Below, one piece after another: positions 1,268-25,678 of a stretch of DNA of 32,890 nucleotides. Location of the stretch: assembly GCA_043801585.1 (NCBI GenBank), contig JAZDLX010000030.1, positions 1 to 32,890 on the forward strand, given 5' to 3'. A program made the translations under genes and the position numbers. Under the pieces are notes generated by a model. That model made no database searches. It saw nothing but the letters and a program-made list of their open reading frames with translations, and was not told where the DNA came from. Position 1 is the stretch's first letter; each line of letters starts with the position of its first letter. Source of the stretch: a bacterium (GTDB lineage Bacteria; Electryoneota; Electryoneia; Electryoneales; Electryoneaceae).

Positions 1268-1380
1268 TATCCTCTTCCTTGAACGCTCACCCATATTGAA
1301 AAGGATGAGCGTTCAAGAATATCTCATGTACAATGTATGCCAAACGAAACAGGAAAAGCTTATTTCAACAACACGATCTT
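1268..1380. repeat. Conserved intergenic module, copy 2 (end of upstream CTD, spacer and hairpin)
   Basis: 87/95 identical to 3101-3195 at an offset of 1833 bp (counted by eye). Confidence 0.9.
1276..1319 (-). promoter_or_regulatory. 5'-UTR/intergenic stem-loop, copy 2
   Basis: UUCUUGAACGCUCAUCC pairs with GGGUGAGCGUUCAAGGA (17 bp with G-U pairs on the minus strand). No poly-U tail. Confidence 0.55.
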
Positions 1381-3072
1381 TCGAAGGTTGGTGGATTTCC
1401 CCTTCTGGGTGGCTCGGATAAAATAGACTCCGCTGGCGAAATCGGAATTCGGCGACCATGTGGTGATAGCGGAATTAGCAAAAGGGAGAGATAATGTCGC
1501 CACCTGCTGTCCAAGTACATCATATATAGCTAACGCTGCTGATTTTATGCTCGGTAGAGCGACACGGATTGTAACTGTTCCATTGAATGGATTCGGCCAA
1601 ACTGACTCAATCTCAAATCGTTGCGGAAGCGACGAATGAGATGGATTCTCCGTCGTATCCGAAACAGGAGGTCCATCCTCGCTAATCCGATTGAAACGGA
1701 AATAGCCTTCTTTATACGTGTATTGGATCAACAAGTACCCATCAGATAATCTTGTGATCCGCGTTCGAGGGAAAGAGGTTGTGTTGCCATTCTCATCCCA
1801 TGTCAAAACTCGAGGAGGATCTGCCCATAAATCTGGTTTTCCTTCGGGCGGGACCTTGTGCATAGTGATATTCCCGCACCAGGTATTATCCTTGAACACT
1901 ACTGTTTTCACAGTTGTGATGACATCCTGACCGTTGAATGCAGTGACCAATGTTGGTCCGTAGGAAGTATCGGCGATTGGATTAGTGAGGTCATTCACTT
2001 TAACCGCCATTGTAGTATCAAGTCTCGTGTAATAGAGATTATCATCCATCGTTGTGTACATGAACACAGCATCGCCATTTGAAAGGATCGCCGGCCACCG
2101 ACTGACACTTTCTCCCCCGAGTAGAAGTCCATCATGTGAAACCGACTGGTTATTGCAATCTACCCGCTGTACATCCGCCCTCCCACCAGTGCCACTCGCC
2201 GTGATATAGACACCCCCATATCCATCAGGTGTGGCAGTAACTCCCGAAGAATTGTAGGGATTTGTTCGTGCAATACCACCGGCGATCGGTTGATTCTGTG
2301 TATAATGCTCCCACGCCAGACTTCCGCTGTGGTCGATAAATCCAGCAAATATTCCACCTTTTCCGTCTTCACAAATCGCTACTCCATTATCCGGAATATT
2401 GTCATCAATTATAAATGGATTGTGGTAATTAATGTTTAGTGTCCCGTCGGAATGAACGTTCGTGATGTATTTCTTCATCGAAAAACCGACGTAAACCACC
2501 AGCCACATCCCGTCATTGCCATCCGTACAACAAGCCCAGTGATTCCAACCAGCCCAGATATAGTCTGTCCCGTCCTTGACCGCCAGAGGAACGCCGGATT
2601 TATTCCACATCGGTTCGCCGTCAGCATTGAGCCGCTGCCCGCAAAGGCCGAAATATCCATCTGTGCTGTCAGGAGTATAGAAGAATTTCATGAAGGCGAC
2701 GATTACACCACCATCGCTCGTCGGAACTGCGCCGTGCAGCCAAGCGACTTCGACTGTCGTATCCTGAAAGATGCTGTGCCCGTATTCCCCGAAAAGCTTC
2801 ACGCCGTTGGAGTCGATGTGCTGAACTCGAAGGTAGCCATTCGTGAGTTTTGTCGATCTTGTTCCTTTCAATCCAGCAGATAGACGTAGGGATTGAGACG
2901 GAGGAGCATCGACCGGGTCATAGAGCAGCCAGAATCCGCCCGATGTATCTGGAACCGTGATCATTTCCTCCACCTTACCCATCGGCTCGATGCCTTCCAT
3001 CGGCCATTCGGCAGAAGCAGTAAAAATAGTCCCAAATAATGCGATCGATATTGCCAAAGCTAACCGTGACAT
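1360..3072 (-). CDS. Secreted repeat (beta-propeller-like) protein with T9SS type A C-terminal sorting domain
   Basis: Start moved to ATG 3072 (GAGGG RBS; signal peptide MSRLALAISIALFGTIFTASA|EW). Repeated DGxGG motifs. C-terminus WPNPFNGTVTI...IYDVLGQQV...SGVYFIR...KIVLLK. Confidence 0.88.
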   Translation of the reverse strand: MSRLALAISIALFGTIFTASAEWPMEGIEPMGKVEEMITVPDTSGGFWLLYDPVDAPPSQSLRLSAGLKGTRSTKLTNGYLRVQHIDSNGVKLFGEYGHSIFQDTTVEVAWLHGAVPTSDGGVIVAFMKFFYTPDSTDGYFGLCGQRLNADGEPMWNKSGVPLAVKDGTDYIWAGWNHWACCTDGNDGMWLVVYVGFSMKKYITNVHSDGTLNINYHNPFIIDDNIPDNGVAICEDGKGGIFAGFIDHSGSLAWEHYTQNQPIAGGIARTNPYNSSGVTATPDGYGGVYITASGTGGRADVQRVDCNNQSVSHDGLLLGGESVSRWPAILSNGDAVFMYTTMDDNLYYTRLDTTMAVKVNDLTNPIADTSYGPTLVTAFNGQDVITTVKTVVFKDNTWCGNITMHKVPPEGKPDLWADPPRVLTWDENGNTTSFPRTRITRLSDGYLLIQYTYKEGYFRFNRISEDGPPVSDTTENPSHSSLPQRFEIESVWPNPFNGTVTIRVALPSIKSAALAIYDVLGQQVATLSLPFANSAITTWSPNSDFASGVYFIRATQKGKSTNLRKIVLLK

Positions 3073-3100
3073 ACGAACCCTCAAGGTTTTCGAGATAGCA

Positions 3101-3213
3101 TATCCTCTTCCTTGAACGCTCACCCCAATTGAAAAGGATGAGCGTTCAAGAATATCTATTGTATAATGTATACCAAACGAAACAGGAGAAGCCTATTTCA
3201 ACAGCACAATTTT
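3101..3213. repeat. Conserved intergenic module, copy 1
   Basis: Direct repeat of 1268-1380. Confidence 0.9.
3109..3152 (-). promoter_or_regulatory. 5'-UTR/intergenic stem-loop, copy 1
   Basis: 18-bp stem with three G-U pairs, valid only on the minus strand. Preceded by AT-rich TATACATTATACAAT, a possible -10 region. Confidence 0.55.
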
Positions 3214-4109: not shown

Positions 4110-4138
4110 ACGGGCTGCTTCTCTTCGAAGCAGCCCGT
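4110..4138 (-). terminator. Putative intrinsic terminator of the minus-strand operon
   Basis: 12-bp perfect stem ACGGGCTGCTTC/GAAGCAGCCCGT downstream of the last gene; the U tail is weak (GUUGUUGG). Confidence 0.55.
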
Positions 4139-4270: not shown

Positions 4271-6415
4271 TCATTCTTCCAATTCGACGGCGACCAGAGC
4301 ATAGATGTCCAGCTCCGGTACCGTCACCTGAGCGACGCCGCCGGTGACAACCGGCTCGATGGAACTCCGTTCGCAGCCCGGACGATAGAGCCAGGCGTGT
4401 TCGATCCTTCGGCCTTTTGGCAGTGCGAGTTGGCAGACGACATTCGATGCGGCTGTGATGTCTCCCTTGATGGTGACGTCGTAATTCACAAGATGGAGCA
4501 AAACGTTCGAGCCGTCGCTCTTCGCCATCCGGCTGACTTCGACCCACGGATGCTCCGACAGCCGCCGTGTCACGCGGTCACCAATCTTTTCGAGCACGGT
4601 GTCAACGAGTGACTCAAGGTGCGTGCGAAGCTCGGGATGAATATTATCCCGTGTGTAAGCTTCGGGGACATCGGGGAACACGTCGAGCATCGCGGGTCCA
4701 AAGGTCGTTGCATCGGCACGCTGCTTGCCTCTGACAAGAAAGCGGTGCTCCGGAATGTCGAGGGGCACACGAATGATGCTACCGCTTCCGACCGTCGCCA
4801 CCCGCTCGTCGGCCTGATTAAAAAGCGACTCGAAGGGCGGTGTTTCACGCTCCAAGCCGTAGCCGTCCTTATGTCCGCAGTCGCCCAACAGGACGAGTGT
4901 GCCACCCTGACGTGCATAGTCCAGCAACGCTTCGATCTCCCCATTGGTGAGGAGCGGCTGATAGGGAACCAACACGAGAGGGTACCGTGCGAGTCGATCA
5001 ACACGCAGGTCGTCACTGACCAGCATAACATGGTGAACCCCTCGATCGGCCAGCACGCGTGACGCTGTAAAGGCAAAGGAGAGCTCGTCATGCAGGTATG
5101 GCCGAATCATCGCGACAACTGCGATCTCGCCATCCATCTTGCTTTCGAGCAGATAGGGTTCCGCCGAGGCGAGCAGTCGGTGCATCTGGGTGGCGCCGGG
5201 AGGAGTCTCGCGTTTTTCGCGAAAGACCGCATGACCAGCCGCCGCTTCCGCAATGTTGATTTGCGCCATGGCACTCAGCGCCCGCTCCGTCGGCTCCGGG
5301 AATATCGGGGGTGTAATCTCCGTTGCATAGACGATGACAGGTTTGCCGTGGGTTGCGGCTGTCAGGAAACGGAGAGCCGGACTGTTGGTGATCCGTACGC
5401 CGTCGCTACGCCGTCTCGGCGCAAACTCGAGATACTCCTGGATTTCGGAGTAGACGAAATCATCGACCCCATCACGCCCGAGCATCTCGATGTTGCCCGC
5501 CGCATCATAGGCGATCGGACCATAGCCAAATCCACCGTAAACGTTGCCACTGATAAGGAAATGAGGATTGTACTTCCTTGCGATTTCGCGCATATGGTGG
5601 TGGAAATTCGCCACGCTTTCACCCCTGAAGGTGACCCATTCCGCCCAGAAGGGCTGACCGCGACCGGTGGGAGGTTCGAGAGTTTCGTACTCCGCGGTGC
5701 CGTACTTCTTGATCGCGATCTCCTTTGGGAGATTCTGCGTCAAGTATTCACGAAAGGCACGCACGCTGTGGTCGCAGTAACAGGTTCCGCCGGCGATCTG
5801 TGTCCAGTCGATGTAGGAACCGTCGATCCCTGTCTCGGCCTGAGCACGAATCCGCCCCTCCATGTAGCGCACATAGTCCGGATTGTGTGGACAGCCCCAG
5901 GCTTCGAATCCCTCGTCTGTCTCCTGGCCGTAGGGAGCGTACCGGTAGTACGGGAAGGTTCCGTCCGAACGCACCATGAGCCAGCTCGTTGGATCGCTCG
6001 CCGGCTTCGGCCCGATGTAATCCTCGAACTCGGACCAGCGTTTGTTGTAGAAATCGAGCAGTCCGATCTGATCTTTCCGGGGTTCGCTCTTCGGCGTTGC
6101 GGAGTTTCCCTCAAGGGAGGTCGAGAGATAACGCAGGACGATGATCTCTCGATCATGGTAGGCGTCGTTGAACTGCCGCGCCGCGAGCATCGACGAATCG
6201 AACTGAGCGCGGGTAACATCGGGAAAGTTGGGTGCACCGCTGCCAAAGGTGAGTGTGAATTGATTATCGGCAAGGAAAGTGGAATCGCTGCGGTGTCCGA
6301 GCCGCCAGTGCCCCCAATCGGTGGAGGGAGCCCACGACTTGGTTGCACAACCTGTCACGAACATGACAATGACTGCTGCAAGGCAAACAATCAGCAACTG
6401 TTTCGACTTCATCAT
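4271..6415 (-). CDS. Lipoprotein, putative glycoside hydrolase (GHL6/GH42-like TIM barrel plus beta-galactosidase trimerisation/GATase1-like domain)
   Basis: Start moved to ATG 6415 (MMKSKQLLIVCLAAVIVMFVTG|C lipobox). Motifs CPHNPDY, IDGSYIDW, CYCDH, WVTFR, LLDYARQGGTLV, LHLVNYD. Confidence 0.75.
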   Translation of the reverse strand: MMKSKQLLIVCLAAVIVMFVTGCATKSWAPSTDWGHWRLGHRSDSTFLADNQFTLTFGSGAPNFPDVTRAQFDSSMLAARQFNDAYHDREIIVLRYLSTSLEGNSATPKSEPRKDQIGLLDFYNKRWSEFEDYIGPKPASDPTSWLMVRSDGTFPYYRYAPYGQETDEGFEAWGCPHNPDYVRYMEGRIRAQAETGIDGSYIDWTQIAGGTCYCDHSVRAFREYLTQNLPKEIAIKKYGTAEYETLEPPTGRGQPFWAEWVTFRGESVANFHHHMREIARKYNPHFLISGNVYGGFGYGPIAYDAAGNIEMLGRDGVDDFVYSEIQEYLEFAPRRRSDGVRITNSPALRFLTAATHGKPVIVYATEITPPIFPEPTERALSAMAQINIAEAAAGHAVFREKRETPPGATQMHRLLASAEPYLLESKMDGEIAVVAMIRPYLHDELSFAFTASRVLADRGVHHVMLVSDDLRVDRLARYPLVLVPYQPLLTNGEIEALLDYARQGGTLVLLGDCGHKDGYGLERETPPFESLFNQADERVATVGSGSIIRVPLDIPEHRFLVRGKQRADATTFGPAMLDVFPDVPEAYTRDNIHPELRTHLESLVDTVLEKIGDRVTRRLSEHPWVEVSRMAKSDGSNVLLHLVNYDVTIKGDITAASNVVCQLALPKGRRIEHAWLYRPGCERSSIEPVVTGGVAQVTVPELDIYALVAVELEE

Positions 6416-6644
6416 CTCGCCCCCCCACGTTTCTGCATCCTTCAAAACGAAACGGGGCCGTTTTGATGAATTCGCCCCGTCTGCAATAATTGTCATCTGC
6501 TATGATGCCGGTGATGTTCAAACTGAGCGATCATATGTCGTCACCATCATCATCCGGCTTCTCCTGCTCTGTGGAGAAGCAGTCCTTCCACGTAAACTCA
6601 TATCCAGAAACCACCAGATATATCCAGCGGTGAGTCCTCAAGCA

Positions 6645-7667
6645 TCAATCAAACTCCTGCGGTTCCTTGACGTCCGGGTGGATCTGGTAGGACTGGCCAT
6701 CAACAACCCCCAGCCAGGTGCCGTCGGGCAGTTGGATCGCGTCAATCTGGTGCATCCCATCCGTGGCCCACCACTCGCCGTTGGGCTGCAGCACCGGATT
6801 GGCGGGGACGGGGGTTTCCTGGTACACCTTCGGGGTGATCTTGTCAATGCGAAACGCCGATACGCTCTGTCCGTAGGTTGGATAGGTGTCCTGCGAAAGG
6901 CGGTACCAGTAGCCGTTAATCTTCATGATGCGCCCGGCGGGGCGCGAGATATTGGCGTCGTTGCTGACAATCGGGCTCGCCGGATGCTCTTTCCAGGGAC
7001 CCATCAGGTCCTTCGAATAGTAGAGGCGGGTGTCGTCCCAACCGTTTTTAAAATCCGTGGCGCAGACTATGTACCAGTACTTGCCCTCGCGGAAGATGCT
7101 GGGATCCACATTTTGGACGTCCACAAGCGTCTTGACGAATTTCCACTCCGTGGGGAAATTGGTAGCCTTGTAGAGGCGCAGGGTGTGGGTCTGGTAGGTC
7201 TCGGGGATCATGTAGTAGTCGCCGTTCCACTCGAATACCTGCGGGTAGGAGAGGTGGAAGTACTCGTGCAGTACCACGCCCTTGTAGGTCCAGTGGATGC
7301 CATCCTCCGATTCCGCGTAGGCGATGTCACCATAGCCGTACGGCTCCACTTTGGCAACTTCCAGGAACAGGAGATATTTATTATCGACCTTGACGATGAA
7401 CGGGTCCGCGACGAACAGGGCCTTGGCGTCGGTGATGTCCTTGTAGGTGAAAACCGGATTCTGAATGTCGCCGGGATCCTTGAGTGTCCACGGGGTCTCG
7501 CCGCGGTAGACGCCAATCGACCAGAGCAACTCCGTGTGAGGTGCAGGCGCCATGATTGTGCTGTCAGCAGTCCTAACATCACCCTCGCCTTCGTCCGTCT
7601 GAGCGAAAGCGGTTAATGGAATCGCAACCAGCAGAGTCAATGCGTATGCGAGCAACAAACGTTTCAT
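6645..7667 (-). CDS. Exported five-bladed beta-propeller resembling the N-terminal domain of plant GINT1 (GT64); GH43/32-like fold
   Basis: Signal peptide; motifs WSIGVY, NPVFT, FVADPF, HLSYPQVF, YMIPET, LYKATNFP, GPWKEHP, RPAGR, QD..PTYG, GMHQID. Confidence 0.75.
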   Translation of the reverse strand: MKRLLLAYALTLLVAIPLTAFAQTDEGEGDVRTADSTIMAPAPHTELLWSIGVYRGETPWTLKDPGDIQNPVFTYKDITDAKALFVADPFIVKVDNKYLLFLEVAKVEPYGYGDIAYAESEDGIHWTYKGVVLHEYFHLSYPQVFEWNGDYYMIPETYQTHTLRLYKATNFPTEWKFVKTLVDVQNVDPSIFREGKYWYIVCATDFKNGWDDTRLYYSKDLMGPWKEHPASPIVSNDANISRPAGRIMKINGYWYRLSQDTYPTYGQSVSAFRIDKITPKVYQETPVPANPVLQPNGEWWATDGMHQIDAIQLPDGTWLGVVDGQSYQIHPDVKEPQEFD

Positions 7668-7705
7668 GCTTCTGTCCTTTCTTCAGCGGGTAAAACCACG
7701 AGGCT

Positions 7706-8629
7706 TCACCCAACACGTCCCGATGAGCCGAGCAAGCGCATCTTGGCGCGAACCGTTTCCGCAACCGCGTCACGTGCCTCACCGAGGTAAATCCGCGGAT
7801 CAATCACCCGTGGATCCTCTCCAAGCGTCTGGCGCAACGCCGCGAGGAATGCCAGACGCAATTCGGTAGCGACGTTGACCTTTCGGATTCCACGGCGGAC
7901 GGCCTCGCGGTACAGCTCCTCGCCCAATCCCGAAGCTCCCTGGATAGCGCCCCCATACCGGTTGATCGTGGAGATTGCCTCGAGATCCACACCCGATGCG
8001 CCGTGCAGGACAAGTGGAACGTGCACCCTGGCCGCGATAGCGGTAATGCGTTCAAGATCGAGGTAAGGCTCTCCCTGAAATTTGTAGGCGCCATGGCTGG
8101 TGCCGACGGCAATCGCCAGGGAGTCCACACCGGTTTTCGCGACAAATTCCTCCGCCTTTTCCGGATCCGTCAGTGGAGGTTCGACAGCCGCCTGCTCGCC
8201 CGGTTTTCCGCCGACATGCCCCAGTTCCGCCTCGGTGAAAGCGTTTCGAGCGTGAGCAAGTTTGACGACTTCGGTGGTGATCCTGACATTCTCCTCAAAG
8301 GGGAGCGAGCTGCCGTCGAACATCACCGAGGTGAATCCAGCTTCAAGCACGTCCGCCACCATCTCCGGGTTCTCGCCGTGATCGAGGTGAAGAACCGGCC
8401 GAACGTCCTCGCTGCGCGCCACCCCGGAGACTGTTGCGGCAAACGTGGCGGCGTCGAGATAGTCCAGGGTCTTGGGGCTGGCGGCAATGATCACCGGAGA
8501 CCGCTCATCGTGCGCCGCACGCACGATCGCCTGCACGAATTCAAGGTTTTCGGCGTTGAATTGCCCAAGCGCCCACCCCTCTCTGGCTGTTCTGGCATAG
8601 AGTTTTTTCAACTCGTCGCGATTCACCAC
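7706..8629 (-). CDS. fba: Class II fructose/tagatose-1,6-bisphosphate aldolase
   Basis: HLDHG, GFTSVMFDGS, EAELG, GTSHG, LVLHGASG, KVNV; GGAGGA RBS (the start may be 8626). Confidence 0.92.
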   Translation of the reverse strand: MVNRDELKKLYARTAREGWALGQFNAENLEFVQAIVRAAHDERSPVIIAASPKTLDYLDAATFAATVSGVARSEDVRPVLHLDHGENPEMVADVLEAGFTSVMFDGSSLPFEENVRITTEVVKLAHARNAFTEAELGHVGGKPGEQAAVEPPLTDPEKAEEFVAKTGVDSLAIAVGTSHGAYKFQGEPYLDLERITAIAARVHVPLVLHGASGVDLEAISTINRYGGAIQGASGLGEELYREAVRRGIRKVNVATELRLAFLAALRQTLGEDPRVIDPRIYLGEARDAVAETVRAKMRLLGSSGRVG

Positions 8630-8646
8630 TCCTCCAGATTGCAGCC

Positions 8647-8802
8647 CTACCGGGCAGCGTTCTCGTCCGTCGTAGCGGTCTTTGAATCGTTTTCCTTATG
8701 ATCCTGATACAGCCGAATGAACTCACGCACGGGCTGTACGATGAACACGACGAGGATGAAGAAGGCGATTGCCCAAATGCCCCAGGTAATCCAGTCAAAC
8801 AT
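8647..8802 (-). CDS. 51-aa single-TM protein, candidate SSS accessory subunit (absent from the ORF track)
   Basis: GGAG-N6-ATG; MFDWITWGIWAIAFFILVVFIVQPVREFIRLYQDHKENDSKTATTDENAAR*. It fills the gap between the SSS and the aldolase. Confidence 0.8.
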   Translation of the reverse strand: MFDWITWGIWAIAFFILVVFIVQPVREFIRLYQDHKENDSKTATTDENAAR

Positions 8803-8814
8803 GGTTTTCTCCGA

Positions 8815-10503
8815 TCAAGTGGTATAGGCACGCATTAGCCCGCCGCCAAAATAGATGATCATGCCGGTGATCGCCGTCGCGCTCGCCGCGTCTGAACCCT
8901 GCGATCCCAGATAGAGGCCAACGGCAAAGATCAGCAAACCGGCGAACCAGATGCCCAGCGCCGCCTTTCCAGGAAGACTGATTGGTATCAGGTGATAGGT
9001 TGACGCCTTGTCCACCTCTTCGGCGGTATTCTTCCTCGCCGCCCACACCCGGGCGATTTTCTCCGGATCAGGTTTCGCTGTCATCACACTGATCAGCGGA
9101 GTGAAGATCAGGGCGGCGGAAGCGGAAACCAGAGCGGTCACCGCAAAAGCACTGTCATCCGCTATCGCCCATCCGAAGAACGGCACCTTCGCCGCGACCT
9201 GCGTGTAAATGCCGAACCCGGCGCCCGCGAGGTACCCGAGGAAAGCGCCCTGCCAGTTTGCACGTTTCCAGAGCAGTCCGTAGAAAATGGCGACGATGAA
9301 GAGCGGCATGTCGAGGATGCTGATCACCGTCAGGTACGCCTCCACCGCCGTTCCGATTTTTGGAACCATGTACGCGAAGACGATCATAATCACGCCGGCG
9401 ACACCGATCAGCAGGCGCAAGGTGAAAACGACCGCCTTGTCCGTGGCGTCACGTTTGAAGATTGTGCGATAGACATCGTTGACAAACAGTGTGGAGGTGG
9501 CGTTCAGGTTCGCGGAAATGGTGGACACCTGGCTCGATAGCAGACCGACGAGCACAAGCCCCAGGATGACCGGCGGCATGTGACTGACCAGCAGCGTGCC
9601 CATGGCGTCATCGGGATTCGCGAGACCGGGATGAAGAATGCGCGCCGCGAGGCCTGGAATCACCGTGAGGTAGGCGATCGGGGCCATGATCACACCGGCG
9701 AGGATCAGGCCGCGTGAGACGGTGCGGATGTTTTTCGCGGAAAAGGCCGTTTGCAGCAGCCCCTGGTCCGTCGACGCCCATTGGATTCCGAGCAGGAAGA
9801 TGGCCACGATGAAAAGCCAGTTATAAGGACCCGACTGGACAACGAAATCCATCGACCCAGGCTCCAGCTTCGCAAGCAGGCCCGCTGTCCAACCGACCTT
9901 GCTCATCACCACGGGGACGATGATCAGCAGTGCGGCGAGCATCAGGACGAACTGCAAAACGTTTGTCAGGGCAACCGCCCACATCCCACCCATGGCGGTG
10001 TAGATGATGGCGATGATCGCGAACACCGCAATCCATGACGCGAATGCCATCGCGCCCTCGGTGCCGGTGACATTCATCGCCACCTTGACCGCGAGATAGA
10101 GCACCACCCCGAGCCACGCGCCCAACCGGAAAACCCACATGATGCCGATCAGGGCCCGGACGCCACGGCTGTAACGGTGTTCAAGGTATTCGGGCACCGT
10201 GTGGACCCTGAGGCGGCGAAGGATCGGAAGGACAAACAGGCCGCTGAAAACCAGCGCCATCATCCCTGTCCACTCCTGCCAGACAATCCCGATGCCGTGT
10301 GCGTAACTGGTGCCGGCGTAACCAACGAAATTGTAGAGGTTGATGTTCGTCGCCGCCAGTGTTGCAGCAAGGATGAAGGGTGTGATCGAACGGCCCGTGA
10401 CCATGAAGTCGTCGGGGTTTCCGATCCACTTGTAAAACCAGCTCCCCAGCAGAAAAATCACGCCAAGAAACACAAAGATGATGGCATAATCAATGAATGT
10501 CAT
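8815..10503 (-). CDS. Sodium:solute symporter (SSS) family sugar transporter
   Basis: DFMVTGR, TVPEYLEHRY, YTAMGGMWAV, DQGLLQ; many TM helices. Start MTFIDY chosen by analogy with its paralogue (GTG 10515 is an alternative). Confidence 0.92.
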   Translation of the reverse strand: MTFIDYAIIFVFLGVIFLLGSWFYKWIGNPDDFMVTGRSITPFILAATLAATNINLYNFVGYAGTSYAHGIGIVWQEWTGMMALVFSGLFVLPILRRLRVHTVPEYLEHRYSRGVRALIGIMWVFRLGAWLGVVLYLAVKVAMNVTGTEGAMAFASWIAVFAIIAIIYTAMGGMWAVALTNVLQFVLMLAALLIIVPVVMSKVGWTAGLLAKLEPGSMDFVVQSGPYNWLFIVAIFLLGIQWASTDQGLLQTAFSAKNIRTVSRGLILAGVIMAPIAYLTVIPGLAARILHPGLANPDDAMGTLLVSHMPPVILGLVLVGLLSSQVSTISANLNATSTLFVNDVYRTIFKRDATDKAVVFTLRLLIGVAGVIMIVFAYMVPKIGTAVEAYLTVISILDMPLFIVAIFYGLLWKRANWQGAFLGYLAGAGFGIYTQVAAKVPFFGWAIADDSAFAVTALVSASAALIFTPLISVMTAKPDPEKIARVWAARKNTAEEVDKASTYHLIPISLPGKAALGIWFAGLLIFAVGLYLGSQGSDAASATAITGMIIYFGGGLMRAYTT

Positions 10504-10527
10504 GGCCTCGTCCACCTTCCGGTTATC

Positions 10528-10962
10528 CTACTTGTCACCCATGACCTGCACAACAACGGTTCTTTCGAGCGGACCGTCAAACTCGAGGAAATAAATGGTC
10601 TGACGGCCCCCCTTGACGATCTTTCCGTCAACGATCGCAAAGTTGACCTGATAGTTGGCGAGGACGCTTTTCAGGTGATCCTCGGCGTTGAAACCCACAC
10701 GTCCGTCGAAGTCGAGGTACCGGCGATGCCGATAATCGGCTTCCACGGGCGCGAGCTTCTTGAAGAAGGCGATCATGTCCGCCTCGAGGCAGGGAATGCC
10801 CTCCGTCACATTCATCCCTGACGACGTGTGAGTGGTATACACGAGCAGGTGGCCGTGTTTGATACCCGACCGTTCGACCACTTCCTCCACCTGCGGAGTG
10901 ATATCGATTGCGATCTCGTCCGCCGTCGTCAGGATCTTGATCTTCTCGGTGTGGATATGCAC
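10528..10962 (-). CDS. yjbQ: YjbQ/UPF0047 family protein
   Basis: DITPQV, SGIKHG, HTSSG, NAEDHLKS, Q.IYFLEFDGP..R; AAGGAG RBS. Confidence 0.88.
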   Translation of the reverse strand: MHIHTEKIKILTTADEIAIDITPQVEEVVERSGIKHGHLLVYTTHTSSGMNVTEGIPCLEADMIAFFKKLAPVEADYRHRRYLDFDGRVGFNAEDHLKSVLANYQVNFAIVDGKIVKGGRQTIYFLEFDGPLERTVVVQVMGDK

Positions 10963-10973
10963 AAGCGACTCCT

Positions 10974-11813
10974 TTACAGCTTCAGCAGACGGCGCGCGTT
11001 TTCGCCGGAAATCGCCTCGATGGCATCCGCATTCAATCCGGCTCCCTCGAGCATCTCGATGGCGTGTTTGATTTCCATACGCGGGTAACAGGAGCCCATC
11101 AACACCCGCTCGCGGAGACTGCGCTCGATGACCGTCTTCGGGATCAGGTGGTTAAATACGAACCTCCCGAATTCGATGGGGTGATCGTGATAAAGCGCGG
11201 ACGTGTCGAGATAGACGTTGTCATACTTCAAACCCAGCGCTACAGCTTCCGCCACCCAGGGCCAGCCGAGGTGCGACAGGACAATGGGGACATCGCGAAA
11301 ACTTCGAATGATCCGCTCGAAGTGGATCGGACGCCCGGGTTCCAGGGGTGTATCCGGCGCCCAGCTCATTCCCGTTTCAAACAGGATCGGGATCTGCAGC
11401 GACCGGGCGGCTTCGTACACCTCGGTGGCACCCTTGGAATAGGGGTCGAAATCCTGCATGCCCGGCAGCAGATGGACACCCTTCAAGCCATAGGCTTTGA
11501 CATCCTTCTCGAGCTGCTGCGCGGCACCCTTGACCTCCGGGTCCACACTGGCAAAACCGACAAACCGTCCGGAACGTTTGACCAGCTCGGCAATCTGCGC
11601 GTTGGTGAAGACATCCACGCCGCGGGCGCGTTTGCAGGCAATCGGGAGGATTACCGCGGTGTCCACACCTCCCGCGTCCATCTGCAAGTGGAACACCTCG
11701 AGAGGCTGCAGGTTGTTGCCGCACTGGAAAACGTCCCGGGTCGCCCGCAACATCTCATCCGACCCCTCAACCATCTCCCGGACGAGCACCGGATAGGTAT
11801 GGAAATCGATCAT
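10974..11813 (-). CDS. Amidohydrolase_2-fold protein with atypical metal-ligand positions
   Basis: IDFHTY, GFASVDP, LFETG, LSHLGWP, NVYLDTS, GSCYP, GENARRLL. Start 11813 overlaps the PfkB stop (ATGA). Confidence 0.85.
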   Translation of the reverse strand: MIDFHTYPVLVREMVEGSDEMLRATRDVFQCGNNLQPLEVFHLQMDAGGVDTAVILPIACKRARGVDVFTNAQIAELVKRSGRFVGFASVDPEVKGAAQQLEKDVKAYGLKGVHLLPGMQDFDPYSKGATEVYEAARSLQIPILFETGMSWAPDTPLEPGRPIHFERIIRSFRDVPIVLSHLGWPWVAEAVALGLKYDNVYLDTSALYHDHPIEFGRFVFNHLIPKTVIERSLRERVLMGSCYPRMEIKHAIEMLEGAGLNADAIEAISGENARRLLKL

Positions 11814-12766
11814 CCTTTCTGATCTCCTTTGAATCCATGCTGGGTCAGCCATCGTTGCGTCCCATCACGATCCGTAAGCGCAGCCGTCCCACCAGCGGCC
11901 GTCACAGAATACGCCGCAATGGCATTTGCAAAGGTTAAGGCGTTTTCGTCATCGAATCCGCGAAGACCTGCGTAAACAAATCCGGCATCAAAACTGTCGC
12001 CCGCACCAACGGCATCGACAACGTTGACATCAAGAGGTTCAACCTGAAATTCCACGCCTTCCGCGTTTCGCATTTTCGCGCCCTGACCTCCCGCCTTTAC
12101 CACCAGTGTCATTCCACGGTGATGAAGGGCTTCGATGGCGTCAGCGATATCATGCGCCCCTGAGATCGCCAGAGCCTCGGACTCGTTGGGAAGAAAGATG
12201 TCCGTATGCTTGAGGACATCGTGAACCCCTTTCCACGTTTCCGCCGGGTCCCATTGAGTATCGAAGCTCGTTGTCAAGCCTGCATCGTGAGCGCGTTTGA
12301 AGAGGGTCGCGCAACCGGGTCGGAGCTCATCCTGGAGATAGAAGCTGGAGACGTGGAGGTGCCGTGCCCGGGCAAGCATCCCGTCGGTTATGTCCACCTC
12401 CTTGAGGTCATCCATGGCACCCTTGAAGGTGACCATCGCCCTGTCGCCTCCCCACCCGAGAACGGCCGTGACGCCCGTTGGGGTCGAGGGATCGACGATG
12501 ATGCTGCTGGTGTCCACGCCACCCTGTTGCAGGCTCTCCAGCACAAGTTTCCCGAAAGCATCCTCACCCAGCCTGCCGGCAAAGGCGACCTTCGCCCCAA
12601 GCGATGCCAGATTGACCGCAAAGATTGCTGAGGATGAACCCATGGTCAGGGTCATTCGGTCCGCGAGGATCTCCTTTCCCAGTTCCGGGGACTGAGTCAT
12701 GCCAAAAAGGATCAGGTCCGCGTTCAGTTCGCCAACAACAAGCACGTCAAACGGTTTGTTCGTCAC
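11810..12766 (-). CDS. PfkB family carbohydrate kinase
   Basis: VVGELNADL, GRLGEDAFG, FLPNESEA, DAVGAGDSFDAG. Confidence 0.93.
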   Translation of the reverse strand: MTNKPFDVLVVGELNADLILFGMTQSPELGKEILADRMTLTMGSSSAIFAVNLASLGAKVAFAGRLGEDAFGKLVLESLQQGGVDTSSIIVDPSTPTGVTAVLGWGGDRAMVTFKGAMDDLKEVDITDGMLARARHLHVSSFYLQDELRPGCATLFKRAHDAGLTTSFDTQWDPAETWKGVHDVLKHTDIFLPNESEALAISGAHDIADAIEALHHRGMTLVVKAGGQGAKMRNAEGVEFQVEPLDVNVVDAVGAGDSFDAGFVYAGLRGFDDENALTFANAIAAYSVTAAGGTAALTDRDGTQRWLTQHGFKGDQKG

Positions 12767-13815
12767 AGCGTCACCACTTGTGTCAGGTTTTTCGGGCTGT
12801 CCGGGTCTTCACCTCGGGACAGAGCATATTCAAGACCAAAAAGTTGAGCCACAGGCATCACCAGCGGCAACCGCGCTTTTTCAGGAATCTCCGTTCCAAT
12901 TTCCGTCACCAGGTCAGCGTGGTCACTCGTGATCCTTTTCGCTGAACCTGCAATGGCCCAGATTCCAACCCCCAACTTCTTGATATCGGCGAGCAGGTCT
13001 TTTTCGTAATCTCCTCCACCGTCCGAAAGCAGCGCCACGACAAATGTATCTGAATCTGCAATGGACTTGGGACCGTGGCGGTATTCAAGGCTGTGGAAGG
13101 GTTCGCTCGATTGAATCGCCATTTCCTTGACCTTCAGAGCGATTTCACAAGCGAGACCGTAATACGCACCCTGACCAAACGTCACGATGCGTTGAGGGTT
13201 GAACTCCGTCACAACCGTATGAACATCCCGATTCAGTTTTGATCCGAGAGCGTCCAACATGTCGGGCAATTGTTTCTGTGCATCGAGCAGATTCTCGCGG
13301 TGGGCGACGTGGAAAATCCAGCGGCTGAACCCAAGCAACATGGTGCTGAAAGACCGTGTCATTACGACCGACTTCTCCGCCGCTCGACCGACTGCAAGCA
13401 CAGCCTGCGCGCCTTTTGCCATTTCCGTTTCCGGGTGGCAGGTCAGCGCCCAGGTGACACCGCTGAATTTCTCACGCTGAACCTGTAGCGCCCGCACGGT
13501 TTCCGTTGTCGTTCCGCTCCTTGAAACTCCCAACGCCCAGGCGGGTTCCGGGTGATTGTAGTCCTCTGCACAGATCAACAGGTCGGACGGCGGCACGGCC
13601 AACACCGGCGCACCTGTGAGAGACCGCATCAGATGGGCAAGGGTGCGCGACAGGTAAAGAGACGATCCTGCACCGACAAACAGTCCACGCCCTTGGGGCG
13701 GGACGACCGGCAATCCGAATCCGTCCTGCTCAAGGTCCTGCAACGTTTCTTTCCAGACGCTCGCCTGGGAGATGATCTCCTGGCGAGTCGTTCCGCCCGC
13801 AATGGCGGTCATCAT
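12763..13815 (-). CDS. Double-SIS-domain sugar-phosphate isomerase/deaminase (AgaS/GlmS-C-like)
   Basis: GAGSS, SRSGTTTET, EKSVVMTRSF, LKVKE, EYRHGP, PDSPKNLTQVV; no glutaminase domain. Confidence 0.9.
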   Translation of the reverse strand: MMTAIAGGTTRQEIISQASVWKETLQDLEQDGFGLPVVPPQGRGLFVGAGSSLYLSRTLAHLMRSLTGAPVLAVPPSDLLICAEDYNHPEPAWALGVSRSGTTTETVRALQVQREKFSGVTWALTCHPETEMAKGAQAVLAVGRAAEKSVVMTRSFSTMLLGFSRWIFHVAHRENLLDAQKQLPDMLDALGSKLNRDVHTVVTEFNPQRIVTFGQGAYYGLACEIALKVKEMAIQSSEPFHSLEYRHGPKSIADSDTFVVALLSDGGGDYEKDLLADIKKLGVGIWAIAGSAKRITSDHADLVTEIGTEIPEKARLPLVMPVAQLFGLEYALSRGEDPDSPKNLTQVVTL

Positions 13816-13835
13816 CCATCTCCTTCCGTGAACCG

Positions 13836-15863
13836 TCAGGGGGTAAAGGTGAGGGTTGCTCCTCTTCTTAATTCAGGAATGGCCACTTCGGTGTTGCTGC
13901 CTTTTCTCCTCACACTCAACAGCTTCGAATCTCCGAACGCCTCAAGCATCCGGACGCTGGTGAAATGACCAGTGACGCGCAGTTTCAGGTTGGTCAGTTC
14001 TTTCGGTACGGCGTTCACGTTCGCCACCAGGCCTGTCGTATTGAACAGATGAACCGTCAGGTTTCTACCACTGCGAAGGGCGGTCACCTGGACGTCGCCA
14101 TCCGTTTTCAATTCGACCGTCCGATCGGCAAGTTTCAAGCGAGGCACCTTCTTCCACCATCGTTCTTTCAGCGCATTCAATTTGTCGGCCGGAAGGGAAT
14201 CGCGAGGCTCCTCCCACTCCTCGGTCATCGCCAGACCTCGAAGCCATTCCCGTTCGGGAACACCTTCGATTCGGATTACCTGCCCCTCCAATTCCCCAAG
14301 TCCATCGCCGGGACCTCGGTCGTTGTTCCACATCCCCGGTTCACCGCTGGCGACGATCTTCACACCTTTCTCCAGCAGACCCTGCAAGTACTCCAGTTCA
14401 GGTCCATCGAGCACTCGTGTGTCAGGCAGGATCAGAACCTTGACATCCGCCGTTCGCAGGTTGCGGGGGGTGATCACCTGGTAGGGAATCCCTGCCTCCA
14501 GCAGCAGCATGCTCGCCCCGAAGAAAGCATCCGTATACTCCCGGCCTGTCCATGTACGGCTGCTGGGCGAGAAGTAGATTCCATAGCCTGCCGCAACCGT
14601 GGCGTCATCGGGATACAGCACCTTTTTATGATCGCAAATCCAGTTCAACGCCTGCGAGCGCCAGCTCGAATCGACCGTCGACCTGCACATCCGGATATCA
14701 CCGCACTCCCAGAAGGAAGCGTCGAGAGCAATATGGCTGAACGCCAGATTTGCGGAGGCGGCGATGCGGTCTCCCTGCCATTTGTCGTAGGCGGCGTAGG
14801 TGAGCATCCAACTCGGTTTGCCACGTTCCCGGGTGATTTCGCGAAGTGCATGCACACCCGCCTGGAAGTACAGCCATTGATTCGTACCGCGAGCCGAGGC
14901 AACCGCAAACGGATTGTACTCGTGTGAAATGGCATCACAGAATTGGATGATGCGATAGGGGTCCGCACCGACGATGACAGGATCCATATCCGTACCGGGA
15001 TACAACTCAACGATGAATGCGACTCCCGGATCGGCGGCCTTGATCACATCGTGCACACGCATGACAAACTCATCCATGGCGTGCATTCGAAAACGAACCC
15101 ATTCCCGGAAAACGGGATCGTCAAAATTGCCCAAGTCGGCTTTGTACGGATCGAATCCCGTTCGACGGCGAAATTCAGCGACCGTTGCCGAGTCGAAACT
15201 CGCCCAGGTATCTCCCCATCCCTCGAAATGAGTCATCCAATAGGGAACGTCAAGATAGATGCCATCAAGGCCCGTCAGTGCAAGTCGCCGCACGATTTCC
15301 AGGTAAGGGTCCAGCCAGTCCCTGGCGTAGGGAGAGAGCCAGATATCCTCGGTGTTCGGCGGAATCCAGAACGCGGCTTTTTCGTCGAACAGTGCGGGGT
15401 CCCCGTCCCGATTCCTTTGAGCCCAGTTGGGATGGTCCAACAAAGCCGTATGGCCGCTGGCAATGTCATGCGAGAGGATTTCAAGCCCGGCGATGTAGAG
15501 CACCGCCCGGCGTCCGTTTTTGTGCACCTCGTGCGCCATGAAACGCACGAATTCAATGGTGCTGTCCGGATGGCAGAAGACTTCGTAATCCTCGGTCAAC
15601 CCCGTGTGCAGATCGATGACACTTGCCCCGGATGCAGCGGCATTGGCGATTTGCAGCGCAGCGTCCGCTCGCCCCCTGTACCCACAGAGACCGACGATGG
15701 TCGCTCCCTGGATCCAGCCGAAACGCCCGGATTCCTCATGCGGCGCATAGGACCGAATCCTTGAGCCCTGGGTCTTATCTCCGCATCCACAGGAATCGTT
15801 CTGCCCGAACAATGGTGTGGCGACCATGCTGACAAGCAACATCGGCGCAAGGATTCCACTCAC
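13836..15863 (-). CDS. Exported putative glycoside hydrolase (GHL6-like barrel plus trimerisation/GATase1-like domain)
   Basis: Signal peptide; HPNWAQRN, LDGIYLDVPYW, WVRFR, IVELYP, ISHEY, VLILPD, VHLFN. The start is uncertain (GTG 15863, CTG 15869 or TTG 15899). Confidence 0.72.
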   Translation of the reverse strand: MSGILAPMLLVSMVATPLFGQNDSCGCGDKTQGSRIRSYAPHEESGRFGWIQGATIVGLCGYRGRADAALQIANAAASGASVIDLHTGLTEDYEVFCHPDSTIEFVRFMAHEVHKNGRRAVLYIAGLEILSHDIASGHTALLDHPNWAQRNRDGDPALFDEKAAFWIPPNTEDIWLSPYARDWLDPYLEIVRRLALTGLDGIYLDVPYWMTHFEGWGDTWASFDSATVAEFRRRTGFDPYKADLGNFDDPVFREWVRFRMHAMDEFVMRVHDVIKAADPGVAFIVELYPGTDMDPVIVGADPYRIIQFCDAISHEYNPFAVASARGTNQWLYFQAGVHALREITRERGKPSWMLTYAAYDKWQGDRIAASANLAFSHIALDASFWECGDIRMCRSTVDSSWRSQALNWICDHKKVLYPDDATVAAGYGIYFSPSSRTWTGREYTDAFFGASMLLLEAGIPYQVITPRNLRTADVKVLILPDTRVLDGPELEYLQGLLEKGVKIVASGEPGMWNNDRGPGDGLGELEGQVIRIEGVPEREWLRGLAMTEEWEEPRDSLPADKLNALKERWWKKVPRLKLADRTVELKTDGDVQVTALRSGRNLTVHLFNTTGLVANVNAVPKELTNLKLRVTGHFTSVRMLEAFGDSKLLSVRRKGSNTEVAIPELRRGATLTFTP

Positions 15864-15882
15864 TTTCAGAGCAATGCTCCGT

Positions 15883-18009: not shown

Positions 18010-18025
18010 GGTTCACGTCTCCCTA

Positions 18026-19039
18026 TTAAAAGCGGAATCCGACACCGAACTGCTGAAGGACTCCAAACACTCCCCAATCGGCGGCAGCGTAATCGAAGAT
18101 CACCTGGCCCATGTTCGGCATGTGGATGTTGAAACCGAATCCAGCCGTCCAGCTGGCCTCGTCCCAATTGGCCTTGTAACCAGCGCGCAGGTAAACAAAA
18201 TCGTCGTAAACATACTCTGCGCCGATCAGGTGACGAGCCTCGTAATCGCGGCTGTCGAGGAGTTGATACACGAGATGCAGCCTCATCTGGTTCGTCTGGA
18301 AAACATTGGTCTCAACACCAAGACGGAAGAGGAGCGGCAACTCCCAGGATTCCGTCTTCATCCTCGCGGGAACTTCCTTGCCCGTGGGGCTGTCCGGCAC
18401 GGTGTAGAGAACCTCAAGATCCCGGCCGTTGAACTGCAACTTGCTGCCGAAATTCGAGAGTACGAAATTCATCTCGAGATTGTTGAGGAAATTCGTCCGG
18501 AATGTAGATCCGATGTCCACGGCAAACGCTGTTGCTTGCGCCTGGGAAAGGTTCTCGTTGATCACCTTGACTTTTCCACCGGCGGAAAACCTGTCCGTGA
18601 GCTTCGCGGCGAATGTTGCACCGATCATCAGATCGCTGGCGTTGAACACTCGGCCGGTTCCATCCTGTTCCGCGATCGTGGTTTCGTCGATGTCACCGGT
18701 GCCGAAATAATCAATATCTACGGCAACCGTCGAGACTGGCGATAACGGATAGGACGCCGCCAGGTAGCTGACCCGGGTATCGACAAGCCACTTCATCGAA
18801 GAGATCGTGATGGAACCCTCGGACATGCCGGCAATGGAAGCGGGGTTGAACATCACTCCCCCCGCCCCGCTGCCGGAAGAGAGAGGTGCGTCTCCCATCG
18901 CGGAGTTGCGTGTGATGGGACTGATCTTGAGAAAATTCGCCGCCGAAGTACCGGCGTAGTTGACGTTCTGGGCATGCACCCCCTCGCCCGCGACGGCAAG
19001 CATCAGGACTGCCAAAATCATTTTTCCGACTGCACGCAT
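18026..19039 (-). CDS. PorV/PorQ-family (UPF0164-like) outer-membrane beta-barrel
   Basis: GTSAANFLKI..RNSAMGDA, FNPA, A.AVDIG, LPLLFRLG, LRAGY, DYA; C-terminal Phe. Confidence 0.85.
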   Translation of the reverse strand: MRAVGKMILAVLMLAVAGEGVHAQNVNYAGTSAANFLKISPITRNSAMGDAPLSSGSGAGGVMFNPASIAGMSEGSITISSMKWLVDTRVSYLAASYPLSPVSTVAVDIDYFGTGDIDETTIAEQDGTGRVFNASDLMIGATFAAKLTDRFSAGGKVKVINENLSQAQATAFAVDIGSTFRTNFLNNLEMNFVLSNFGSKLQFNGRDLEVLYTVPDSPTGKEVPARMKTESWELPLLFRLGVETNVFQTNQMRLHLVYQLLDSRDYEARHLIGAEYVYDDFVYLRAGYKANWDEASWTAGFGFNIHMPNMGQVIFDYAAADWGVFGVLQQFGVGFRF

Positions 19040-19049
19040 CGGGGCCTCC

Positions 19050-21200: not shown

Positions 21201-21201
21201 C

Positions 21202-24873: not shown

Positions 24874-25678
24874 TACGCGCATCCGCGACTTCATCAATTG
24901 CATCCCACTTTTTCGTAGCTTGCCGCCGCTCGAGGTAACGTTTCATCACCTCGAATTCTTCCGATGTGTTCACTCCGAGATGATGTTCCGGGTGTTTGCT
25001 TCGCCAACCGGCCACTCGAAGCCCTGCTTTTCCTGCCAACGTCACGATATCGGTCAGATACATCTCCCTTGCCCGCTGCGATCGTTGGAATTGCATCGCC
25101 AGGGGCCACACGATCGGCGAGGAAAACACCCATTGCGAGGTTGTCACCTCCCGAATCTGTCTCTGCACAGAACTCGCATCGCTTTCTTCGATCAGGGCCA
25201 CGATCTTTCCCTCCGCATCACGCACCACCCGTCCGTAAGGCGGCACGGGATCGAATTCCGCAGTCGTCAGTGTGACCGCCGCATTCTGTTTGCGATGCTC
25301 TTCCAGCAACGCTTCCAGATCCTCACTCTGAAGCGCCGGGGCATCACCCACGGTTACAATCAGATCACCCTGAAATCTCTCCAAGACCGGACGGGCAGCG
25401 AGAAATGCGTGCCCTGTTCCCAGGGGAGTTTCCTGAACCACGGATACAACATCCACACCCGCTCGTTCGATCACCAGATCTCCGCCATGTTCGAGGGGTG
25501 GCACAACCACCACCACGGGACCGTTCACGACCCCAAGGCACGCCTCGATGACCCATCGCACCAGCGGCTTCCCGGCGATCGTCTGCGCCGGCTTCAGTTC
25601 GTCGCTTCCACCAAGACGTTTCCCCATTCCTCCAGCCAGCACAATGGCTGCTGAGTCCCTGTTCGCCGAACGACTCAT
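24863..25678 (-). CDS. Sugar-1-phosphate nucleotidyltransferase (GlmU N-terminal domain only)
   Basis: LAGGMGKRL..K, QETPLGTGHA, VGDAP, YGRVVRD, EMYLTD, GVNT; no hexapeptide acetyltransferase domain. Confidence 0.88.
   Translation of the reverse strand: MSRSANRDSAAIVLAGGMGKRLGGSDELKPAQTIAGKPLVRWVIEACLGVVNGPVVVVVPPLEHGGDLVIERAGVDVVSVVQETPLGTGHAFLAARPVLERFQGDLIVTVGDAPALQSEDLEALLEEHRKQNAAVTLTTAEFDPVPPYGRVVRDAEGKIVALIEESDASSVQRQIREVTTSQWVFSSPIVWPLAMQFQRSQRAREMYLTDIVTLAGKAGLRVAGWRSKHPEHHLGVNTSEEFEVMKRYLERRQATKKWDAIDEVADARNES

Follow-up and report, generated by a model that had tools for sequence, protein, structure and literature searches.

An exported GINT1_N propeller in an amino-sugar catabolic locus of an Electryoneaceae bacterium: a candidate periplasmic de-N-acetylase

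The window analysed here is a 32,890-nucleotide (nt) stretch of contig JAZDLX010000030.1 from a bacterium of the Electryoneaceae. At positions 6645-7667 of its minus strand lies an open reading frame (ORF) for an exported, stand-alone propeller protein of 340 residues, whose sole domain is GINT1_N (PF24793, residues 46-324). The original prediction for this gene had proposed that its product removes the acetyl group from a terminal N-acetylhexosamine (HexNAc) ahead of a glycoside hydrolase of family GH36 encoded in the same locus, and we tentatively place this proposal first among the readings weighed below. The ORF starts with ATG, with a ribosome-binding-like AAAGGA on the same strand (7675-7680) 7 nt 5' of it. 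Only 38 nt separate the stop codon of the preceding aldolase gene from the propeller gene, and therefore the two are likely to be co-transcribed; no terminator-like site was found between them, and the next terminator-like hairpin on the minus strand (4110-4138) lies past the following gene (4271-6496).

The protein begins with MKRLLLAYALTLLVAIPLTAFA|QTDEGEG. A Sec-type signal peptide (residues 1-22; 7602-7667, minus strand), with a basic n-region, a hydrophobic core and an AxA-type site with predicted cleavage after AFA, was assigned by eye, without a signal-peptide predictor; the close orthologues P0001-P0004 share the same FAQ/LAQ cleavage site. In the AlphaFold2 model, built from a 90-sequence alignment, the signal region forms a single helix (residues 2-22), after which comes a linker of low confidence (25-42). 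This acidic linker, which we delimit as residues 23-43 (7539-7601, minus strand), has a predicted local distance difference test score (pLDDT) of about 50 for residues 21-40. The remainder, residues 44-330 (6678-7538, minus strand), is a five-bladed beta-propeller as judged from the predicted fold and from conservation, and the model as a whole has a mean pLDDT of 92.8 and a predicted template modelling score of 0.85. The GINT1_N profile matches with E 6.9e-58 and 196.5 bits (cut-off 27) over positions 6-303 of its 304, and a search of the whole genome returns the same match. The Pfam GH43 profile (PF04616) stays below threshold, with 28.4 bits against a cut-off of 32.2 over residues 84-321. 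A GT64 glycosyltransferase domain, as in plant GINT1, is absent from the 340 residues; such fusions occur only in six eukaryotic proteins among 108 long forms of the family. The ORF, the profile match and the model thus agree with the earlier description of a signal peptide joined to a propeller domain only, and the relationship to the N-terminal domain of GINT1, which had been suggested from the letters alone, proves to be strong, so that the first of the two refuting outcomes named beforehand, a lack of this homology, does not apply.

All genes of the locus lie on the minus strand and are described here in the order in which they are transcribed. A propeller-like gene (31768-32889), with weak YVTN/lactonase-type matches in the Protein Data Bank (PDB), runs off the window end and overlaps by 4 nt the start codon of GH36; it is conserved upstream of GH36 in two related genomes, G014 and G005. 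The GH36 gene (29693-31771) encodes a lipoprotein, judged from its signal, of the Flavonifractor plautii alpha-galactosaminidase type. It is followed by an SSF symporter gene and by a gene for a 375-residue Amidohydro_2 protein with a signal peptide (26923-28050), both recognised by domain search, and then by a ROK/NagC-type regulator gene. The signal peptide would make 26923-28050 a periplasmic amidohydrolase, which is unusual; its one PDB sequence match, a weak one, is to a gamma-resorcylate decarboxylase, and it is a candidate for a deacetylase step or for a lactonase. Two overlapping genes (23779-25678) encode a GlmU-N-like nucleotidyltransferase without the acetyltransferase half and a galactokinase-like GHMP kinase, a pair that suggests a Leloir-like salvage of amino sugars in parallel to the SIS/PfkB/aldolase route described below.

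Next come a TonB-dependent receptor gene (21202-23763) and two paralogues carrying the tail of the type IX secretion system (T9SS; 19050-21299 and 15883-18009), which are about 61-63% alike by tblastn in relatives and have a PorV/PorQ-family gene (18026-19039) between them. The stretch 15883-23763 resembles a capture and import cassette of the polysaccharide utilisation locus type without SusD. The series continues with a GHL10-like exported protein (13836-15899) that has no PDB sequence match, a SIS-domain deaminase-isomerase resembling AgaS/GlmD (12763-13815), a PfkB kinase (11810-12766), a cytoplasmic Amidohydro_2 protein (10974-11852), a second SSF symporter (8815-10515) and a class II ketose-bisphosphate aldolase (7706-8629), after which the propeller gene follows. 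The operon-like run 7706-15899 is found in the same order in G014 (locus L002) and in two metagenome contigs (L094, L103). Judged from the family names, the locus would serve the capture, import and use of a glycan containing alpha-linked galactosamine (GalN), and would lead at its end into a phosphate pathway of the tagatose (or fructose) type.

In the genome of the window (G000), which is 92% complete, a search at E <= 1e-5 gave no NagA/AgaA (TIGR00221), while 10 of 14 control genomes matched. Since no NagA was found, amino sugars appear to be usable for this cell only in de-N-acetylated form, unless the deacetylation is carried out by another enzyme. Elsewhere in the genome there is one gene of the carbohydrate esterase family CE4. 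The cytoplasmic Amidohydro_2 protein, standing within the SIS-PfkB-SSF-aldolase operon, could be a non-orthologous replacement of NagA.

The GH36 that the original prediction placed in the catabolic locus is present, though 22 kb upstream of the propeller gene. Its best PDB match is 9awt, entitled 'A type blood alpha-D-galactosamine galactosaminidase', with E 6.5e-66 over query residues 39-689 and residues 18-669 of the 672-residue chain; the next GH36 alpha-galactosidase in the same search reaches only 1.3e-18. Nine active-site residues of the F. plautii enzyme (FpGalNase) are named in PMC11762096, and the GH36 of the locus keeps eight of them (W317, D346, D347, W387, K461, D463, C513 and D532). 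Because the position of the remaining one, Y464, is occupied by Gly, its specificity may differ from that of the blood-group enzyme.

A GalNase-type GH36 and close orthologues of the propeller (at least 60% identity) occur in exactly the same three of the 79 genomes of the phylum, namely that of the window, G014 and G005, all of them kin, and in this sense the suggested co-occurrence is borne out. The propeller orthologues are 82% (G014) and 60% (G005) identical to the window protein, and the corresponding values for GH36 are 81% and 58%; a fourth genome, G008, has a GINT1_N relative of only 36% identity. G014 is syntenic across the whole locus. G005 keeps a block consisting of the propeller-like gene, GH36, SSF, the exported Amidohydro_2, ROK, the nucleotidyltransferase, the GHMP kinase and the TonB receptor. 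The GINT1_N gene of G005 (locus L003/L091, contig G005:C6) lies on another contig, between a T9SS-tailed Exo_endo_phos gene and the gene for another TonB receptor, this one of the OMP_b-brl_3 type. Sphingomyelinase-type phosphodiesterases belong to the Exo_endo_phos family, so that this neighbour hints that the substrate could be a phosphodiester-linked glycoconjugate. A metagenome scan for the catabolic subclade returned only the two contigs mentioned above, which add no independent context since their synteny is that of G014. The catabolic, exported subclade of GINT1_N is rare.

To describe the active site, we counted conservation over 300 GINT1_N domains of all architectures. R242 and H306 are kept in all 300 domains, D323 in 298, H228 in 297, Y265 in 296, D188 in 295, E103 in 294, D88 in 293, Q259 in 292, R256 and E284 in 289 each, H138 in 273, D309 in 269, and E156 in 269 with Asp in a further 19; R246 also belongs to the invariant or nearly invariant residues. 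The acidic and histidine motifs singled out from the letters (ADPF 87-90, HLSYP 138-142, MIPE 153-156, VDP 187-189 and GMHQID 304-309) are all present and are kept in most of these domains. By our own reading of the secondary structure of the model, the innermost first strands of blades 1 to 5 carry D88; H138, S140 and Y141; D188; R242 and R246; and H306 and D309, respectively. Conserved polar residues are therefore found on the inner strand of every blade and should ring the funnel of the propeller.

The relation to GH43 of clan GH-F deserves particular attention. Both are five-bladed propellers, and the Asp residues of ADPF in blade 1 and of VDPS in blade 3 fall, by motif, at the positions of the GH43 base and of the pKa-modulating Asp. 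R242, however, occupies the position of the general-acid Glu (the 'EGP' motif of GH43), ten residues N-terminal of the Gly in the NGYWY strand, in a mapping that is a reading of motifs and not a superposition. Because this position is Arg in every one of the 300 domains, the triad is incomplete; a GH43-type triad with glycosidase activity only was the second outcome that had been named as refuting the deacetylase proposal. With a profile score below the cut-off and an incomplete triad, the protein is, as far as sequence can tell, no canonical GH43.

The predicted structure was compared with known folds in two ways. Foldseek against the PDB places GH130 phosphorylases at the top (9fj8 and 9gph, E 5e-12), followed by GH117, GH159, GH62 and GH43. 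A second comparison, independent of Foldseek, scanned 48,161 chains; its best matches are 9fj8 (GH130, Teth514_1788; Z 24.1, root-mean-square deviation (rmsd) 2.6 over 250 residues), 9erh (the GH130 synthase Uhgb_MS; Z 23.0), 5mt2 (BT_0996; Z 22.9), and 4udg (GH130) and 7zei (GH159), both with Z 22.8. GH130 makes up five of the top seven rows by entry titles and by 3taw, which we take to be a GH130 enzyme, and GH137 is among the closest folds alongside GH130 and GH159. Several GH62 and GH43 chains have Z 20-21.6, the GH43 chains lying at 19-21. The N-acetylgalactosamine (GalNAc) deacetylase of F. plautii (FpGalNAcDeAc, 6n1b_A), to which the protein had been likened, ranks 13th of the 48,161 chains with Z 20.7 and rmsd 3.2, and aligns over 258 of its 385 residues with residues 60-333 of the model at 13% identity. 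That enzyme is indeed a propeller of this kind, and the comparison is legitimate at the level of the modelled fold, which does not single out the deacetylase.

By sequence, the propeller protein alone gives 12 PDB matches at E <= 10, all weak and confined to GH117 and GH43 (best E 1.4e-4). With the family profile there are 73 matches at E <= 10 (best 3.2e-8), and GH32, GH130, GH159, GH43 and GH117 are among the 60 listed; the GH130 enzyme 7fip is a weak profile match at E 9.7e-7. A search of the ESM Atlas yields only sub-threshold leads to GH130, GH43 and GH32 (score 0.87).

FpGalNAcDeAc is metal-dependent and works with FpGalNase. It shares the propeller fold with the window protein, and a GH36 of the FpGalNase type, the putative partner, lies in the locus and is present in all three genomes that carry the orthologues. 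The propeller-plus-CBM32 architecture of 6N1B is also that of many secreted GINT1_N members. The window protein differs in lacking CBM32, in having no detectable sequence similarity to the deacetylase and in the 22 kb that separate its gene from that of GH36.

GINT1_N is a large family. Its profile finds, among 1.84 billion representatives, 8,588 proteins at E <= 0.001, 6,641 at 1e-10 and 842 at 1e-30, these figures being counts of cluster representatives. A word-indexed search found 703 proteins at E <= 1e-5 among 1,700 candidates, and PF24793 is present in all 120 listed of those 703. Only a few are named, either as hypothetical, as 'family 43 glycosylhydrolase' or as 'glucosamine inositolphosphorylceramide transferase family protein', the last being the NCBI name of bacterial stand-alone relatives. 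Close relatives are scarce, P0001 being 84% identical, P0002-P0005 55-67%, and all others about 50% or less. Some relatives bear a precomputed PF22847 label that our analysis failed to reproduce. A search of the literature found no paper that gives a function for GINT1_N/PF24793, and none that joins GINT1 with 'propeller'. The family is catalogued by Pfam and NCBI, and what is unusual about the window protein is its exported, catabolic setting.

In a Pfam scan of 41 long representatives of the family for partner domains, 12 carry CBM32 (two of them also with GDSL) and five carry other surface repeats, while GT4 is found in five, CE4 and Fem/CelD-type GNAT in two each, and GT2, a GT32-like domain, a sulfotransferase, an APH kinase and a hexapeptide transferase in one each; ten have no detected partner. 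The wider set of 108 long forms, found by profile and tallied from precomputed Pfam labels, includes 41 fusions to glycosyltransferases (GT4 29, GT2 3, GT64 6, all eukaryotic, and other families 3), together with CBM32 (23), CE4 (4), APH (3), Wzx (3-4), methyltransferase (2), Fem/CelD-type GNAT (1) and ATP-grasp (1). One GT4 fusion, P0335, bears the source name alpha-1,4-GalNAc transferase. Among 16 fusions to glycosyltransferase, sulfotransferase, APH, GNAT or hexapeptide domains, a hydrophobic segment is absent from 13, borderline and inside the glycosyltransferase domain in two, and clear between the domains in one; the 13 without a membrane segment are therefore read as cytoplasmic. A hydrophobic N-terminus is present in 57 of 90 stand-alone members. 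Of 12 distant loci that were sampled, 11 lie among polysaccharide-synthesis genes (10 with glycosyltransferase genes), in contrast to the catabolic operon of the window, and the twelfth encodes a 1,642-residue secreted fusion. Since the same conserved site is found in cytoplasmic, membrane, Golgi, periplasmic and secreted members, its chemistry should require only water and perhaps a metal ion.

We also placed the window protein in a FastTree phylogeny of 358 domains, each covering at least 75% of the profile, which was midpoint-rooted and labelled by hand, with 33 long proteins left unlabelled. The clade of the window has six tips (support 1.0) on a long branch and is nested, with support 0.918, in a 114-tip group of stand-alone, glycosyltransferase-fused and cytoplasmic forms. 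The other main group holds all 49 secreted CBM32/PKD forms and all four CE4 fusions. Descent of the window clade from the secreted CBM32 forms is rejected by this tree.

A comparison with plant GINT1 may illuminate the function of the domain. The GINT1 proteins of Perilla and Musa, composed of GINT1_N and GT64, match the profile at E of about 1e-80; their identity to the window protein is 34-36% (about 36% over 87% of its length for Perilla). Together with the nearly full-length profile match and the five-bladed fold, the identity of 21 out of 21 key residues in both plant proteins unites them with the window protein, which differs in having no glycosyltransferase domain and in carrying a cleavable signal peptide instead of a membrane anchor or a cytoplasmic location. 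Three other eukaryotic GT64 fusions deviate at E103, H138, R164, D188 and E284. As the original prediction stated, and as passages of PMC9113257 support, plant glycosyl inositol phosphorylceramides (GIPCs) carry glucosamine (GlcN) or N-acetylglucosamine (GlcNAc); these passages report that the GlcN form was predicted by Ishikawa et al. to arise by deacetylation after GlcNAc transfer. The same passages describe the deacetylase as still unidentified and the origin of the free-amine form as an acknowledged gap. They further describe GMT1, of the same family and about half as long as GINT1, which adds mannose (a hexose) to the same acceptor. Since the shorter GMT1 shares this acceptor, the additional domain of GINT1 seems to correlate with the HexNAc and not with the acceptor.

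On these grounds, we consider the exported propeller to be a predicted periplasmic de-N-acetylase of alpha-linked HexNAc, likely GalNAc, which would leave GalN ends for GH36. This is our first choice, although a tentative one with somewhat less than an even chance of being correct, and a glycosidase is its main rival. The glycan would be captured at the surface and imported via TonB, and the propeller would then remove N-acetyl groups from alpha-linked HexNAc of the imported fragments in the periplasm. GH36 would subsequently release GalN for uptake by the SSF symporter, and in the cytoplasm GalN could be phosphorylated, deaminated to a ketose phosphate, phosphorylated again and cleaved by the aldolase. 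The reaction itself would be an amide hydrolysis, possibly assisted by a metal held by the funnel residues H138, H228, H306, D88 and D188, with R242 stabilising the oxyanion or binding a neighbouring acidic sugar. Such a function explains the glycosyltransferase fusions and the amine-modifying partners, in which a HexNAc would be transferred, its amine freed and then modified anew; this order of events is the established logic of MshA/MshB, PIG-A/PIG-L and NDST. It also accounts for the plant GINT1 case, for the missing general acid, and for a GalN-specific GH36 partner in a genome in which no NagA was found. The polysaccharide-synthesis setting of 11 of the 12 distant loci and the nesting of the window clade among stand-alone, glycosyltransferase-fused and cytoplasmic forms also speak for it. 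De-N-acetylation ahead of GH36, as originally proposed, therefore stands in part: the GalNase-type GH36, its co-occurrence, the shared fold, the incomplete GH43 triad and the plant residues favour it, while the lack of a sequence link to the deacetylase, the closest folds being GH130, GH137 and GH159, and the loose linkage to GH36 do not.

Several results weigh against the de-N-acetylase. The distance between the propeller and GH36 genes is 24 kb in G014 and similarly large here, and in G005 the two are on separate contigs, whereas all three genomes retain the exported Amidohydro_2 gene, together with another propeller gene, in the GH36 block. The exported Amidohydro_2 beside GH36 is a serious alternative for the deacetylase step. 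No GalNase-type GH36 was found within the flanks at any of the 164 GINT1_N loci examined, nor at any examined locus outside this small clade, and because the three genomes are kin (two genera of one family), their co-occurrence may go back to a single acquisition. The top structural matches are glycoside phosphorylases and hydrolases; the deacetylase lies 3.4 Z units lower, level with GH43 and GH62. No deacetylase appears in the 12 PDB matches of the single sequence at E <= 10, nor among the 60 listed of the 73 profile matches, and the Asp residues of the ADPF and VDPS motifs match those of GH43 and GH32. Finally, a CE4 deacetylase is fused to four of the 108 long forms and is encoded by a neighbouring gene at locus L017, which would be redundant if the propeller itself deacetylated; this objection is tempered by the position of the CE4 fusions in the main tree group to which the window clade does not belong.

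The rival that survives best takes the protein for a glycoside hydrolase that belongs to a new GH43/GH130-like family and, in the periplasm, cuts an oligosaccharide with amino sugars, for example at a decoration or a HexN/HexNAc unit; we regard it as possible but rather doubtful. The released monosaccharide would enter by the adjacent SSF symporter, and any deacetylation would be left to the Amidohydro_2 proteins. Every characterised fold neighbour ranked above the deacetylase is a glycoside hydrolase or phosphorylase, the listed profile matches point the same way, and the Asp motifs of blades 1 and 3 are kept, whereas the invariant Arg at the general-acid position and the GH43 score below its cut-off are unfavourable. 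The secreted relatives have CBM32 (12 of 41 and 23 of 108 in the two surveys), PKD, GDSL and CE4 modules, which are typical of glycan-degrading enzymes, and pairs of CE4 with a hydrolase are a known design (PgaB, PelA); in the tree, however, the window clade groups with the biosynthetic forms and not with these. That the propeller gene comes last in an operon whose other genes serve to take up and degrade monosaccharides suits a hydrolase, but the cytoplasmic fusions to glycosyltransferase, sulfotransferase, GNAT and kinase domains and the Golgi GINT1 fusion are hard to explain by glycosidase activity.

A GH130-like glycoside phosphorylase, or a transglycosylase acting as a sugar-1-phosphate-dependent synthase, in which the invariant Arg and His residues bind phosphate, is improbable. 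GH130 beta-mannoside phosphorylases and the Uhgb_MS mannoside synthase (9FJ8, 9ERH) are the best structural matches (rmsd 2.6-2.9 over 250-257 residues) and are likewise rich in conserved Arg and His, the invariant or nearly invariant residues here including R242, R256, R246, H228, H306 and Y265; fusions to APH-type kinases and glycosyltransferases and, in the locus, the genes for a GHMP sugar-1-kinase-like protein and a GlmU-N-like nucleotidyltransferase would also suit this chemistry. However, the signal peptide of the window protein, like the secreted or Golgi-lumenal location of many relatives, places the domain where phosphorolysis or sugar-1-phosphate donors are not expected, and on account of this export we rejected a phosphorylase as the leading reading. 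At the level of sequence there is no family match either: Pfam GH130 (PF04041) gives none at E <= 0.01, and the NCBIfam model for beta-1,2-mannobiose phosphorylase, whose cut-off is 450, scores 18.8 bits. On the strand that here reads HLSYP, GH130 enzymes have their EDPR motif, which includes the catalytic Asp, and they are not known to have the blade-1 Asp that the window protein keeps in ADPF.

Equally unlikely is a non-catalytic propeller that presents a glycan of amino sugars or uronic acids to partner enzymes or transporters: the catalytic residues are predicted rather than demonstrated, the domain is nearly always attached to or adjoining another enzyme, and several invariant Arg could bind acidic groups such as the glucuronic acid-inositol-phosphate of a GIPC, but the extreme conservation of polar residues on the five inner strands from bacteria to plants, with all 21 key residues kept at about 36% identity, is rather what one expects of an enzyme that acts on an unvarying chemical group, GMT1 uses the acceptor of GINT1 although it has no GINT1_N domain, and a stand-alone periplasmic binding protein would have no obvious partner in an SSF symporter.

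Whether the de-N-acetylase function extends to the whole family is a separate question. It is conceivable, although we consider it unlikely on balance, that the members of GINT1_N, from bacteria to plants, are propeller de-N-acetylases of alpha-linked HexNAc and make up a large family that has gone unrecognised, and that the form in the window was recruited to catabolism, where it feeds a GalN-specific GH36. If so, GINT1_N would act in biosynthesis on newly transferred GlcNAc or GalNAc, yielding GlcN or GalN, and the partner domains would then sulfate, acylate or methylate the product. The domain would be a bacterial counterpart of NDST, MshB and PIG-L, and the N-terminal half of plant GINT1 would be the missing enzyme of GlcN-GIPC formation. 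A deacetylase activity would thereby establish a second propeller family of de-N-acetylases, offer a candidate for the plant step and provide a rationale for the many glycosyltransferase fusions, while a glycosidase activity would define a new GH family in which the acid position is occupied, unusually, by Arg. The window protein is a convenient test case, since it is small, soluble, exported and of a single domain, and its locus points to a defined product, free galactosamine. The locus also illustrates how alpha-GalN glycans may be used, independently of a NagA-type enzyme, by an uncultured lineage equipped with a T9SS. Taken as a whole, what the original prediction observed is confirmed, and what it made of the observation is a reasonable hypothesis with partial support; the deacetylase activity is a viable and testable prediction, not a result.

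A possible biosynthetic parallel, and a candidate member of PF24793, is the outer-core protein Orf1 (formerly Ghy) of Acinetobacter baumannii. According to PMC4172580, its gene is present in Group A loci, where it accompanies 6-8 genes for glycosyltransferases as well as pda1, a CE4 gene; the protein was first called a GH43-like hydrolase and has no function assigned to it. Its context is biosynthetic, whereas that of the window protein is catabolic.

Two further features lie downstream of the propeller gene on the minus strand. The next gene (4271-6496) encodes a probable lipoprotein of 741 residues, which matches GH42M (trimerisation) and GlmA-like domains weakly and nothing in the PDB by sequence. 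Its true start is likely an internal Met (MMKSK...), which gives a lipoprotein signal (..VTGC), and in G014 this gene does not adjoin the propeller gene. Further downstream are tandem exported paralogues (403-1290, 295 residues, and 1360-3123), whose N-terminal 70 residues are nearly identical; because the 295-residue protein does not have the T9SS sorting domain that ends the longer one, it may be a truncated duplicate.

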